From Novakomyces olei (lineage: Eukaryota), in the NCBI GenBank assembly GCA_016906335.1, contig JADEYG010000009.1:558001-622000 (forward strand): a DNA stretch of 64,000 bases. Direction: 5' to 3'. Of the stretch, positions 22,743 through 57,385 are shown one piece after another. The notes beneath the pieces were generated by a model that was given only the letters and a program-made list of their open reading frames with translations, ran no database searches and was not told where the DNA came from. Position numbers and translations under genes: made by a program. Each line of letters opens with the position of its first letter. Position 1 is the first letter of the stretch.

Positions 22743-22986
22743 ACGACGATACTCCTAAGAATCATTTCTATAGGAAACGTCCAGAGTTTGGTTTCCCAAC
22801 CGAGCTTCAGTAACTCAACGTGGATGATGAGCAGAGACATCGCCATTCTTTACGAGTGAGACCGTTGTTAAAACATTTTTCTATTACTGGCTGTGTCTTT
22901 GACGCAACCGGTACCGATGACCTCTGGCCGCTAATCTTGCTCTTTGAGCGGATTTCCGGTAGGATGGACGATGTGCTCTGACGCGT
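22743..22986 (+). ncRNA. U3: U3 snoRNA (intronless)
   Basis: GAC box and boxes A'/A (ACGACGATACTCCTAAGAATCATTTCTATAGG), box C' GGATGATGA, box B GAGTGAG, box C CGATGA, box D CTGA with terminal stem AACGTG/CGCGTT; closely resembles S. pombe U3. Confidence 0.93.
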
Positions 22987-39051: not shown

Positions 39052-41177
39052 TCATAATTTGTCTCCCAGCATCCGCGCAAGAGCTCGCACTATAGGATTC
39101 ACCCATCGTTCTGGCCTCTTAAACTCGCCGCTAGTAAGACGATACGTGTCTTGTACAAGATTCTTTTGCTCCTCGATTATTTGAGCCTTCAGATCGGGAT
39201 CCCACGTGACAAGGATAGAGTTTACTTCTAGATCAAGCGTTGTTGAACGCCGCGTGAAATTTGAAGAGCCGACAACCGTTAATGCCGGGTCATTCGGATC
39301 CGCAAAATCAATCCAAATTCCTGTTTGGTAAGTACGAGATAAAAGAAGGGCAAAACATGCTTATTGTGAACTACCTTTTGCATGATAAGTCCAGCCTCCT
39401 GGCCGATTCACAGTCCCATGGCGCCATTCGCGCAATATTACTTGCTCAGACTTGCCTCGTCGTTTGACATTACTGAAAAAGTCTTTTGCAAAAAGCGTGT
39501 AGGCCGCCGGTAACATGCCCGATGGGCCCTTTGACCCGTAAAAGCCATTTGCCTGAACGTTAGCAATAATGAATTAATATTGATAGATTTGAAAAGATAG
39601 AAAATTTTTTGTTTCTTTTTAATTAATTAATCAATTTGTTTTTCCCAAATTCATATCTACTATATAAAATATACTGAATGTAAATTTGGGAAAAACGATT
39701 GATTGTGTACGGATCATAAAAAGCAGCTTAATAGACAACATACCCATGGCGAAGCGGTTAAAACTGTACCCGGAGCCTTTGAACTCAACAACAATTCCGC
39801 ATACGTATGATGCATATTGAAATAGCCAGCAGTGAACATCCAGCTCTTGACTGCTTCCGTTGCGGATCCCAGCAATTGCAGAGTAGCACTTACGAGTGAA
39901 TACTCATTCGCTGATTGGTGAATGTCTGCGGTAAACATTGGGCTCAGTTGACTTGTCACGAATAAAAATGTCGATTTTTCATCTTCCACATCGTCAATCG
40001 GCAATTCCTCTGACGGAATTGTAAGGCCACGCAGATCAGCCCGACTTACAGCACGCTTGAACCCAAGGGGATCATGAACCGGGTGGGGGCAGCTACGTGT
40101 CTCTGGCCATACTAAGCGGAAATTCGTGCTGTTAAGTTTGGCAGGTATGCTCTGGGAGTCTTTTGGATCAAATTCATTCGAGGACTGGTGATTCGACTTT
40201 TTGTTTCCATCTAAAGCCGCGACTCTTGCAGTAGGCGCTACTGAGTTGCCGACTGCAGTCCCATCTCGAGCAATATCGGACTGATCACGTTCGATTTGCA
40301 CATTATCCTGTAGTACAAAAGAGTACCGTGACACGAAATCTTGTAGCGCGAAATAGTGATCAGCCACTCTCGCGTCTTGAACAGCATAATATCGGTCCTG
40401 CCGGTTTGTAAAATAATCGTTTGATAGATTCGCACCAGAAATAATCACAGTATCATCACATCCATAAATCTTCATATGCTGCAGTCCCCAACCCTCATTG
40501 AACCTTGCTGGAACTATACGCGCTTTCAACCCTGCCAGTGCCGGCGTATGATACATCCGCACACTTACACGATCTCCAAATGTGCGAATCAGAGGGCTCA
40601 GAAGGGAGGCACAGCACGGCTGAGGGGCCTCGCGACATCCACGCAAGGCGTCCACTAATATATGAACTTGTAAATGTGGCCGTTTCTCTAAAGCCGATTT
40701 TATTTCGTCCACCTTTGGTAAGTTAGTATCGAGTTTGTGAACAAGTGCTATTCCCTGCTTTTTTTTTTTTTTTTTTTTTTTTTTTGTTGGGCGAAAGCAC
40801 ACTCTTGTGTTGCAAAGTTTCGATCTATTGACCTTTTAAACAAAGAAAGCAAGCCAAAATATTAATGAAAAAAGAAAAATAATATTAAAAAAAACTGAAA
40901 GATTATATCGATCCAATGCCTCTCGTAGCGAAATGCATCATCGACTTACCAGCTCGTTTTCATTCCGGCCAATGTACAGCGTCGAAATGAATATCCTGTT
41001 ATTTGCAGCGCGAATACTTTCACGTAGACGTGTGTAAAACTGCTCTGGTTTGTAGATTACATTTATGCGGCCGCGTGCGACTAAGAATCCCGGAGCATTA
41101 AGCGAAAGACGCTGCAAATACTTTCCAAGTGTGACAGCGCTGTTCCCGCCGCGACGCGCGATACTAAGCTTGTTCAT
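39052..41177 (-). CDS. PGS1: Phosphatidylglycerophosphate synthase (PLD family); multi-exon
   Basis: RIFISTLYIG, LVDALRG, EGWGLQHMKIYGCDD...ISGANLSNDYFTNRQDRY, FTAGYFN, VGSSNFTRRSTTLDLE. Confidence 0.92.
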
Positions 41178-53086: not shown

Positions 53087-54857
53087 TGCTAATTTGCCAA
53101 TGGCCTCATGTCCAGGGTATAAAGCCAGGTGGTTTCGCTCCCCTAGTTCCCCATCCTTCGGGATCCCGAGGTCCGGACGCTATTTCCCGCACTTGTTTGT
53201 TACCTGGTAAATCACCTTTTAGCCGGGGTACGGACTCTGTCCGCTCAAACTTGTGGTTTCAGGGCTTGTTTTCCGCTCGGTAATGGGTGTTTGATACCGG
53301 CGTGGCCTTTCCTCCCTTTTTTTGGAGTCTTTCCAGGTTTTTCGGTGATTTTTTGGCCCTGCATTGACTTTGGAGACGGCACGTTCGGGGCCCCTCTATG
53401 TCTCAGGTCCGGACAAGGACTACCGCTATCGCCCACTGTGGCTTTAGGACTGGGCAGATTTCCGCTAGGCATAGAGGGGTGGCTTTGGGCTAGTTGATTT
53501 GGCATTTGGCAGTTGTATTGCGTTGGAACACGGTTTTCCATGCATTGGCCTAATTTCCATTCCGCTTGTACGGCAAGATCGGGCTTCATCAGCTTCTGTG
53601 CTGTATAGCCAGCTGGGGGGTGCTCTCAAGCATTGATCTTGTTTGTATTAAGTTGGAGCACTATGGATTTGAAAGTTGATCTTGGAGGGACACCGCTGGC
53701 CTAGTGCTCACAGCAGGACCTTACCGCTGGTGGCCCACTCTTATTGTTCTGATTGCTATTTGCACCGTTGTGTGTATTCATTCAATAACAGAGTCACAAC
53801 GTCCACCGGCGCATATGACACGTCAGAGCCTTAGAGATCCCTCTGACCGACACCTCTTATACTGACACGCGGTGAATCTAATTCATCAGTGTCACATGAG
53901 ATGTGCCGGTGAGTGTTGAGATCTTTTTTATGTATATTTCCATAGTTTTGTAGCATACTAGTTAACTGCTTTGAACATTCAAAATCATCCACGTGAGCCC
54001 AATCGGTTGCTTCCAAAATAATTGATTTAATTATCTATTTGTTTTCAAAGCATTCTGAGCTCTAATGAAGTACTTTATGTTTCGCAGTAAAATCGCTCCA
54101 ACTGGCAGAGCCACTGAATGTGGTAAAGCAGCAGGACTTCCAAAAAGCGCATTTTAGGATAACTAGTAACCATATCAAATGATACAGCTTGCTATGGCAA
54201 AGCTGATAATGAATACAGATACATATCTGGTGAAACATGAGTCTGTTATCTCCTCGATATTTCGCTAATAAATTACGATCTTTTTTGCCCACGCTAATCT
54301 AGCCTAAAGTTGATGTACCTCAGTCTAGTTTAATAAACTTATTGTCTAAATCGAGCTGCTAGATCTGCAAGAGAATCAGCATTAATTTTAGTACGTTTGC
54401 TCACTGAATACTGTGTCAATGGGCTTTAGACCACCCATAGAAGGCGACTCTAGAGAGACAAGAACTTTATAAAAAGATCATAATTAATTTTTATTTATAT
54501 CGGGCCAGTCTGTTATCATTTACTAATTTCTACAATATCAGCCTCTATCTAATATTACTTGAGTGCAATATGTCTTTCTGCATAGCGGATAAATGAATAA
54601 ATAATACTCGAACTTGTTGGGTATATTCTTCAAGTATTGCACACAGTACAAGAAATCTCTACAGGCAGAATTCTTTTATCGTTTTCTCATGTGTATTCCT
54701 CACAAGTATCGCCACTACAGAATTACATCAAGTTACACACAAGTCTATTTATCTGCATACAAATACGCAACCATACAAAAATTAAAAAAATTAAAAAGTA
54801 AAAAAATTAAATAATAAAAAAATAAAAAATAAAAACTTTGCATTAGAAACTTTGCGA

Positions 54858-54891
54858 CTGAGGTGAGCTTTATCGGAGCCGTGAGCCTCAG
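54858..54891 (+). promoter_or_regulatory. Canonical kink-turn RNA element in the putative SNU13 5' leader
   Basis: CUGAGG-UGA-GCUU-loop-GAGC-CGU-GAG-CCUCAG gives a C helix, 3-nt bulge CGU, tandem G.A/A.G pairs and a 6-bp NC helix. Confidence 0.75.
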
Positions 54892-54937
54892 GACTGATTA
54901 CGGAATTAACTCATTTCAAAACTTGGCTTGAACGAAA

Positions 54938-55416
54938 ATGTCTGCGCCTAACCCTAAAGCGTTCCCGCTGGCCGATGCACAGCTCACGCAGCAAATCTTG
55001 GATTTGACCCAGCAGGCCTCGCACTACAAGCAGCTGAAGAAGGGAGCTAACGAGGCCACAAAAACACTGAACCGCGGTATCAGCGAGTTTATTGTGATGG
55101 CGGCCGATACGGAACCTATCGAAATTCTTTTGCATCTCCCTCTTCTGTGCGAGGACAAGAATGGTAAGTACAAAACCTTAAACTGCGTGATCAATAATGA
55201 AAACATATGCGCAGTCTCTAATAAAAATGGATGGAAGTTTTACAGCAATGCTAACTTCAAGTGCCGTACGTCTTTGTACCGAGTAAAACGGCTTTGGGCC
55301 GTGCTTGCGGTGTCACGCGCCCGGTTATTTCTGTCAGCATAACGACGAACGAGGCGTCAGGATTGAGGAATCAGATCCAAAAGATCAAGGATTCAATTGA
55401 GAAGCTGCTGATTTAG
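54938..55416 (+). CDS. SNU13: Snu13/15.5K K-turn-binding protein; intron 55164-55261
   Basis: [58 protein letters not shown]. Confidence 0.97.

Positions 55417-55496: not shown

Positions 55497-57385
<1,889 letters not shown>

Follow-up and report, generated by a model that had tools for sequence, protein, structure and literature searches.

A conserved kink-turn in the SNU13 leader of Novakomyces olei and its candidate role in feedback on Snu13 synthesis

We analysed a stretch of 64,000 nucleotides (nt) from Novakomyces olei (assembly GCA_016906335.1, contig JADEYG010000009.1, positions 558,001 to 622,000 of the forward strand), referred to as the window, and focused on SNU13 and on an RNA hairpin in front of its start codon. 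All coordinates are those of the window unless a locus label precedes them. SNU13 lies on the + strand and consists of two exons. Translation of exon 1 plus exon 2, joined at a conserved exon junction, yields a product of 126 amino acids that opens with the conserved Snu13 N-terminus, MSAPNPKA. The hairpin, at 54858-54891, has the layout of a kink-turn (K-turn), with a canonical (C) helix and a non-canonical (NC) helix on either side of a bulge and tandem sheared pairs between G and A; b and n mark positions on the bulged and non-bulged strands. Its parts and those of the gene are as follows.

54858 to 54863, + strand: 5′ strand of the NC helix, CUGAGG, non-bulged strand (from the sequence; paired in the minimum free energy (MFE) fold and aligned as paired by covariance model R2, described below)
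54864, + strand: U at 3n, facing G54885, which makes 3b.3n G.U (sequence)
54865 to 54866, + strand: G2n and A1n, non-bulged half of the tandem sheared G.A/A.G pairs (sequence)
54867 to 54871, + strand: 5′ strand of the C helix, GCUU, plus U54871 (sequence and fold)
54872 to 54874, + strand: hairpin loop, 3 nt with U54871.G54875 and otherwise 5 nt, 54871 to 54875 (MFE versus centroid structure)
54875 to 54879, + strand: 3′ strand of the C helix, (G)GAGC (sequence and fold)
54880 to 54882, + strand: bulge, L1 to L3, with C, G and U (sequence)
54883 to 54884, + strand: G1b and A2b, bulged-strand half of the tandem G.A pairs (sequence)
54885, + strand: G at 3b (sequence)
54886 to 54891, + strand: 3′ strand of the NC helix, CCUCAG (sequence, fold and model R2)
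54892 to 54937, + strand: spacer of 46 nt between hairpin and start codon, free of ATG
54938 to 55163, + strand: SNU13 exon 1, with the ATG at 54938
55164 to 55261, + strand: SNU13 intron of 98 nt, GTAAGT...GCTAAC...AAG
55262 to 55416, + strand: SNU13 exon 2, with the TAG stop at 55414-55416

The initial annotation had described this K-turn base by base, and every element that it named could be read from the sequence at the same place. The NC helix is a perfect helix of 6 base pairs (bp) (54858-54863 with 54886-54891). The C helix consists of G54867-C54879, C54868-G54878, U54869-A54877 and U54870.G54876, to which U54871.G54875 can be added, and the sheared pairs are G54883.A54866 and A54884.G54865. 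All of the sequence features of a standard K-turn are present: a 3-nt bulge, G.A/A.G pairs, a Watson-Crick closing pair and a continuing NC helix. As judged from its sequence, the hairpin is compatible with a standard (simple) K-turn. The MFE fold of 54851-54900 calculated with RNAfold (-13.9 kcal/mol) recovered both helices and the asymmetric internal loop.

Snu13 binds the K-turns of U4 small nuclear RNA (snRNA) and of the box C/D and U3 small nucleolar RNAs (snoRNAs). According to passages of PMC1874613, the Snu13p sites that won systematic evolution of ligands by exponential enrichment (SELEX) have tandem G.A/A.G pairs and U at bulge position 3, and Snu13p binding depends on a bulge closed by one or more pairs and on a stable helix II containing two or more Watson-Crick pairs. 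The window element has these published features, with U54882, C54879-G54867 as the closing pair and six Watson-Crick pairs, and carries G.U at 3b.3n. We took Snu13 as the putative ligand because the window site has these features of Snu13p sites.

We scanned the window for hairpin K-turns with a descriptor in which tandem GA/GA, both helices and a bulge of 3 nt are obligatory. Loose rules (C helix of at least 3 bp, NC helix of at least 4 bp) gave 18 sites when both strands of the 64 kb were counted. Under strict rules (C helix of at least 4 bp, NC helix of at least 6 bp, U at L3), the SNU13 site was the sole match on both strands (128 kb). The strict descriptor matched 0.28 times per 128 kb on average in 60 dinucleotide shuffles, and by arithmetic from this mean about 4e-4 matches are expected per 200-nt sense leader. 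The covariance models of Rfam 15 gave zero matches at 54836-54937, even at E values up to 10. A second, weaker GA/GA arrangement had been reported around the hairpin (GCGA at 54854-54857 and CUGA at 54894-54897). Its bases are present, but it can form only if the inner helix slips by one register, and it fits the loose descriptor alone, which finds about 9 matches per kb anywhere. This second arrangement is at chance level.

To sample relatives, metagenome contigs were searched with the SNU13 exon-1 peptide, and the best 80 of 373 relatives were used (65-90% identical over exon 1, GC content 0.23-0.73). The sample is biased to proteins resembling the Snu13 of the window. Sixteen near-identical leaders were merged and two loci with less than 30 nt upstream were dropped, leaving 62 non-redundant leaders, or 63 with the window. 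The leaders were scanned over 200-300 nt upstream. A sense-strand K-turn core precedes SNU13 in 28 of the 63 leaders, that is, in 27 besides the window. This total comprises 24 leaders and four elements that lie farther upstream, as described below.

The shared core reads C-NGU/AAG-GA-A/G/U on the bulged strand and C/U-GA-G on the opposite strand, and it occurs in two circularly permuted topologies. In type A, the loop caps the C helix: 5′-NC-(C/U)-GA-GC-[loop 3-28 nt]-GC-(AAG/AGU/CGU)-GA-(A/G)-NC-3′. Type A was found in the window, L001, L002, L005, L007, L008, L012, L014, L021, L044 (inner element), L054, L055, L056 and L073, and further upstream in L052 and L077. In type B, a circular permutation, the loop caps the NC helix: 5′-C helix-NGU-GA-(A/U)-NC-[loop]-NC-(C/U)-GA-C helix-3′. 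Type B was found in L004, L006, L009, L011, L013, L018, L042, L044 (outer element), L050, L057, L061, L068 and L020, and in L051 and L033 with A.A and A.U at 3b.3n. The 31 elements are divided into 16 of type A and 15 of type B. Since the two topologies are circularly permuted, the K-turn is the one thing that they preserve.

The scan that gathered the 31 elements required the GA pairs, the closing C-G and L2-L3, so the invariance of these positions (C-G in 31/31) carries no weight. Bulge positions L2 and L3 are GU in 22/31 elements, and the remaining 9/31 have the AAG bulge, which was itself a selection criterion. In MAFFT alignment A1 of nine leaders, G and A at 2n and 1n and the next G-C are invariant columns. 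The hairpin at L044:1110-1157 contains two nested K-turns whose NC helices are stacked end to end, an outer one with bulge CGU (type B) and an inner one with bulge AAG (type A); it would be a doubled sensor. A compact form, GACC-NGU-GA-U-C-[6-nt loop]-G-U-GA-GGUC, is common to L004, L006 and L009; with U.U at 3b.3n and one further NC pair, it comes near to a K-loop.

We compared the frequency of the element in sense leaders with that in other sequence. With a literature-type descriptor, defined by the published Snu13p site features (U at L3, closing pair C-G or G-C), the sense leaders (11,584 nt) gave 29 matches in 20/63 loci (2.50 per kb). The antisense leaders gave 6 matches (0.52 per kb), and sequence elsewhere (184,006 nt) gave 192 (1.04 per kb). 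The enrichment in sense leaders corresponds to a Poisson P of 1.5e-5. A stronger signature was defined by L = NGU or AAG, 3b.3n among A.C, G.U, G-C and U.U, and a C-G closing pair. It matched 26 times in 24/63 sense leaders, once in antisense leaders and 8 times in the 184,006 nt elsewhere. Four of these last 8 matches are located in sense-strand SNU13 leaders farther upstream (L020, L052, L068 and L077), and they are the four elements that bring the total to 28.

Covariance models were used to follow the element beyond the descriptors. Model R1 was built from nine AAG-type leaders and run over 62 loci (125,810 nt) with filters off. It found 13 leader elements at 20.3-44.4 bits, while the next best score in the 125,810 nt was 11.0 bits. 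Four of the elements, in L005, L021, L007 and L001, were recovered without training at 20.3-30.3 bits. The window element departs from the R1 training set at three signature positions and in helix sequence. Model R2 was built from 13 relatives with the window excluded. It ranked the window element second of 128 kb, at 13.2 bits, over its full length and with 8/8 pairs formed. The top match of both R1 and R2 in the window, at 39742-39783, was dismissed as chance, as it is antisense to a coding open reading frame (ORF) and leaves out the C helix and bulge.

Aligning SNU13 leaders to look for covariation was a check proposed in the initial annotation, and with the metagenome relatives it came out positively: both helices covary, in the alignment of 13 type-A elements and over the 31 elements. 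When the 13 type-A elements were fitted to the model structure, 85.6% of cells paired versus 76.1% in shuffled alignments, and 5/8 pairs were changed on both sides. The covariation score was 0.245 versus 0.114 for shuffles, and 0/500 shuffles reached it. The window supplies double changes at pairs 6 and 7. Among all 31 elements, the -2 pair is G-C in 18, C-G in 6, U-A in 6 and G.U in 1, and the 4b.4n pair is C-G in 21, G-C in 9 and A-U in 1. In the closest relatives, the ATG and the two strands of the K-turn were the only parts of the leader that aligned. Because RNA pairing is conserved, transcription of the element is implied.

Reading on from the element, the first ATG met is the SNU13 start codon in 24/24 loci for which a start was assigned. 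In the remaining six loci, this ATG either opens a SNU13-like N-terminus (L014, L073 and L057) or is followed at once by GTAAG (L068, L020 and L051). The gaps from element to ATG are 3-273 nt, with a median of 40.5 nt and 46 nt in the window. In L052 and L077 the element lies 233-273 nt ahead of the ATG with no ATG between. It ends 4-11 nt from the AUG in L012, L004 and L009 and 3 nt from it in L051; together with L006, the K-turns of L012 (at 1165-1194), L004 and L009 end 4-15 nt before the AUG. Sense-strand specificity, conserved pairing and position relative to the ATG together make it probable that the element is in the 5′ untranslated region (UTR).

In the three loci in which an intron directly follows the start codon (L051:348-400, L068:1-62 and L020:570-700), the distance from the end of the K-turn to that codon is 3, 20 and 97 nt, respectively. 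By analogy with yeast RPL30, the element could act on first-intron splicing in these lineages. In the window, about 20 nt separate the hairpin from the end of an almost pure A/T tract of 75 nt (54760-54835) that lies upstream. The tract may be a nucleosome-free promoter region with the transcription start site near or just after it, and the K-turn may hence be near the cap.

The pair 3b.3n is A.C in 21 of the 31 elements, U.U in 5, G.U in 2 (the window and L012), and G-C, A.A and A.U in 1 each. G at 3n or C at 3b occurs in 0/31. According to passages of PMC4382518, either G at 3n or C at 3b allows a K-turn to fold in Mg2+ alone, whereas G-C and G-U are of the U4 type, which waits for protein. 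The 3b.3n rule predicts that the leader K-turn would stay unfolded without protein.

From these observations, we consider it likely that the hairpin is the copy in this fungus of a SNU13-leader K-turn that is conserved widely, among many distant eukaryotes, which would sense Snu13 and exert negative feedback on its synthesis. The U4, box C/D and U3 sites would fill first, and free Snu13 would then bind and fold the leader K-turn. The Snu13-bound, kinked RNA-protein knot would sit 46 nt ahead of the AUG and hinder the scanning 43S complex or recognition of the start codon. Snu13 synthesis would drop, closing a negative feedback in which the element senses free Snu13. The output is probably translational repression rather than a nuclear step. 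The earlier proposal that this K-turn lets Snu13 limit its own synthesis is thereby retained as far as the K-turn is concerned, with its placement, its conservation in 28/63 leaders, the covariation and the absence of an intervening ATG in its favour, and is given up as to the splicing route discussed below.

Several observations weigh against this reading. Stability of the hairpin is ordinary (z = -1.02, with 33/200 shuffles folding equally well), and z is +1.18 when it is folded in a 125-nt context; fold stability by itself gives the K-turn reading no support. In the window, R1 scores the SNU13 element at 10.4 bits (rank 4, E = 1.4), which is within the noise of this model. The E value from R2, 0.13, is weak by sequence alone and rough, since the calibration was shortened. 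Membership of the window element in the family is based on its architecture plus its position. A loose descriptor (C helix of at least 2 bp, NC helix of at least 2 or 1 bp) was not enriched in leaders, with 91 matches in 11,584 nt (7.86 per kb) compared with 9.41 per kb in antisense leaders and 9.32 per kb in other sequence, and it was abandoned as a test of leader enrichment because its rates are no higher than background. The strong signature was set post hoc, from matches already in view. With the descriptors used, 35/63 leaders show nothing, a result that may equally reflect a lack of the element, a first exon far away or a diverged form. The relatives are unannotated metagenome contigs without taxon assignment, and in the protein atlas the Snu13 of L018 proved so conserved that it gave no placement. 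G is present at L3 in 9/31 elements, and it was unselected in the published Snu13p SELEX, making binding there uncertain. Finally, Snu13 is mainly nuclear, and a cytoplasmic translational block is not the sole possible output.

The main rival to translational feedback keeps the same K-turn and the same protein but moves the output to the nucleus, where binding of Snu13 to the nascent or nuclear transcript would lead to retention, decay or altered first-intron processing. We regard this as a possible but less likely output. It agrees with the nuclear location of Snu13, and with the loci L051, L068 and L020, in which GTAAG follows the ATG downstream of the K-turn, an arrangement that recalls yeast RPL30. 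NOP56, moreover, is autoregulated at the level of splicing through a snoRNA in cis, according to passages of PMC8162545. However, the sole intron of the window gene begins 272 nt downstream of the hairpin, many loci keep the element though their SNU13 ORF has no intron, and the position of the element immediately before the AUG in L012, L004 and L009 fits interference with initiation. The initial annotation had offered a different nuclear route, in which the two GUGAGC hexamers serve as 5′ splice sites with CCUAAC as branch point and AAG as acceptor, and Snu13 steers an unproductive splice that removes the AUG. The sequences GTGAGC (54863 and 54881), CCTAAC (54947) and AAG (ending at 54959) are all present as described. 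The hexamers, however, are the K-turn core itself (L2-L3-G-A-3b and 4n-3n-G-A-(-1n)) and are not conserved. On the non-bulged strand of the 16 type-A elements, GCGAGC occurs in 12, CCGAGC or CCGAGT in 2 and GTGAGC in only 2 (the window and L012). On the bulged strand, AGGAAC or AGGAGC occurs in 9, GTGAAC or GTGAAG in 6 and GTGAGC in 1, the window. The supposed branch point and acceptor are codons for P-N-P-K-A within the conserved MSAPNPKA, and the real intron of the gene uses GTAAGT and GCTAAC. A functional 5′ splice site inside the K-turn, as in RPL30, was not found in the window. This splicing model is very improbable.

An element meant for another partner or purpose seems improbable to us. 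Several L7Ae-family proteins read K-turns, as passages of PMC1874613 describe, and the G at L3 in 9/31 elements is unlike known Snu13 sites; another protein of this family, the Rsa1/NUFIP assembly machinery or mRNA localisation would then account for the element. It might also be a tiny box C/D-like RNA, as mouse RNAs of 20-50 nt associated with Snu13 and fibrillarin exist according to part of a preprint (bioRxiv 10.64898/2026.07.28.740266). The element is tied to SNU13 across many lineages and lies in the exonic leader beside the AUG, whereas those RNAs are described there as intronic and poorly conserved, and the hairpins, of 22-66 nt, contain no guide-like segment. A chance motif in this species, or a promoter element that works as DNA, is disfavoured and hardly credible. 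A fold z of only -1.0, the rate of about 9 loose-rule arrangements per kb and the position of the window element inside the noise range of R1 would agree with chance. Against it stand the strict-motif expectation of about 4e-4 for the leader and 27 further non-redundant leaders that agree in architecture, strand and position. What compensatory changes and circular permutation preserve is an RNA geometry and no DNA word, and the 26 sense versus 1 antisense signature matches likewise argue against a DNA element.

Other features of the window were recorded. An rDNA unit opens the window (18S at 206-2023, 5.8S at 2155-2308 and 28S at 2485-5860), with a 5S gene on the opposite strand at 6366-6484 (-). 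Very loose type-B arrangements (NC helix of at least 2 bp, C helix of at least 3 bp) exceed shuffles in the window (205 versus 117 ± 11), an excess that may stem in part from rRNA and from further structured or repetitive sequence. A gene for U3 snoRNA, a Snu13 target, is located at 22743-22986, 32 kb upstream of SNU13. Convergent to SNU13 is a GH47 alpha-1,2-mannosidase gene of 577 amino acids at 55652-57385 (-), for which the nearest protein-atlas clusters are fungal, Ascomycota being the commonest. About 90 nt into the SNU13 3′ UTR, at 55507/55545, there is a K-turn-like arrangement with bulge CGU, closing C-G and G.G at 3b.3n. The 3′ UTRs of 54 relatives showed no enrichment, with the literature-type descriptor matching at 1.34 per kb, which is about background, and given this rate the arrangement is probably due to chance.

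Known systems resemble the SNU13-leader K-turn to different degrees. Archaeal L7Ae autoregulates by way of a K-turn located in the 5′ UTR of l7ae (Daume et al. 2017, PMC5539422; Huang, Ashraf and Lilley 2019, PMC6298567), and passages of PMC6298567 argue that these leader K-turns do not fold until the protein binds. As far as these passages go, the two cases share an L7Ae-family protein, a K-turn hairpin in its own leader just before the start, predicted protein-dependent folding and deep conservation. They differ in that the protein here is eukaryotic Snu13 and not ribosomal L7Ae, and in that the SNU13 mRNA is capped and scanned, with no Shine-Dalgarno sequence to occlude. In addition, the SNU13 core has mostly A.C at 3b.3n, L = NGU or AAG, permuted A and B topologies, and a doubled form in L044. 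In the passages of PMC5539422 and PMC6298567 concerned, eukaryotic autoregulation is treated through L30e, and Snu13 autoregulation does not appear. Yeast RPL30 likewise involves negative feedback by a eukaryotic L7Ae-family protein whose own transcript carries a K-turn at its 5′ end (passages of PMC5539422 and PMC6298567), and its K-turn governs splicing as well as translation (PMC6298567, in part). However, the 5′ splice site forms part of the RPL30 K-turn, while the K-turn of the window overlaps no real splice site, and only three animal-like SNU13 loci have an intron directly after the start codon and close to the K-turn.

The U4 5′ stem-loop, box C/D and U3 B/C sites have in common with the element the 3-nt bulge, U at L3, G.A/A.G and the closing pair (passages of PMC4382518 and PMC1874613), and U4 has two dominant pairs at 3b.3n, of which the G.U of the window is one (PMC4382518, in part). 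In contrast to these primary sites of Snu13/15.5K, the SNU13 element is in an mRNA leader and not in a stable small RNA. The family has mostly A.C at 3b.3n, unlike the G-C/G-U of U4 and the U.U of SELEX in passages of the same two papers, and a third of it has G at L3. NOP56 and snoRD86 (Lykke-Andersen et al. 2018, according to passages of PMC8162545) also link a core protein of the small nucleolar ribonucleoproteins (snoRNPs) of the box C/D class to feedback via a K-turn-containing RNA in its own transcript. There, a whole intronic snoRNA acts on human splice-site choice, whereas the SNU13 element is an exonic hairpin of 34 nt. Synthetic switches with archaeal L7Ae likewise place a K-turn-protein complex in a eukaryotic mRNA, and differ in being engineered. 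They sit in the 5′ UTR and block translation. Such synthetic complexes control eukaryotic mRNA expression according to passages of PMC5539422; since they work in eukaryotic mRNAs, the proposed output gains some mechanistic plausibility.

Snu13 acting on its own mRNA was not found in the full-text literature, including PMC5539422, PMC6298567, PMC8216456 and PMC12218528, in a search outside which subscription-only papers and supplements lay. In the paper of Gao et al. (2021), which deals with structured RNAs of fungi, SNU13 or K-turn has 0 mentions. The SNU13-leader K-turn appears to be without a description in Rfam 15 or the searchable literature, and a prior description is possible. A more speculative view is that the element is an ancient, eukaryote-wide sensor descended from the archaeal l7ae leader K-turn and kept for more than 1 billion years, its hairpin rewired by permutation and doubling around an invariant protein-binding core. 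We hold this rather unlikely. If true, direct archaeal descent would make the element one of the oldest conserved mRNA regulatory elements.

Snu13 is common to the spliceosome (in U4), all box C/D snoRNPs and U3. Because these particles share it, the level of free Snu13 couples splicing capacity to ribosome biogenesis. If the element is a sensor of free Snu13, it would explain how cells balance a shared, limiting factor. Autoregulation through a K-turn would then reach a third protein, after archaeal L7Ae and yeast L30, and many eukaryotic lineages, and the element would be a natural eukaryotic counterpart of the synthetic L7Ae/K-turn switches. The family, which varies at 3b.3n (A.C, G.U or U.U), at L3 (U or G) and in its permuted topologies, would also provide a natural mutagenesis series for what Snu13 tolerates.

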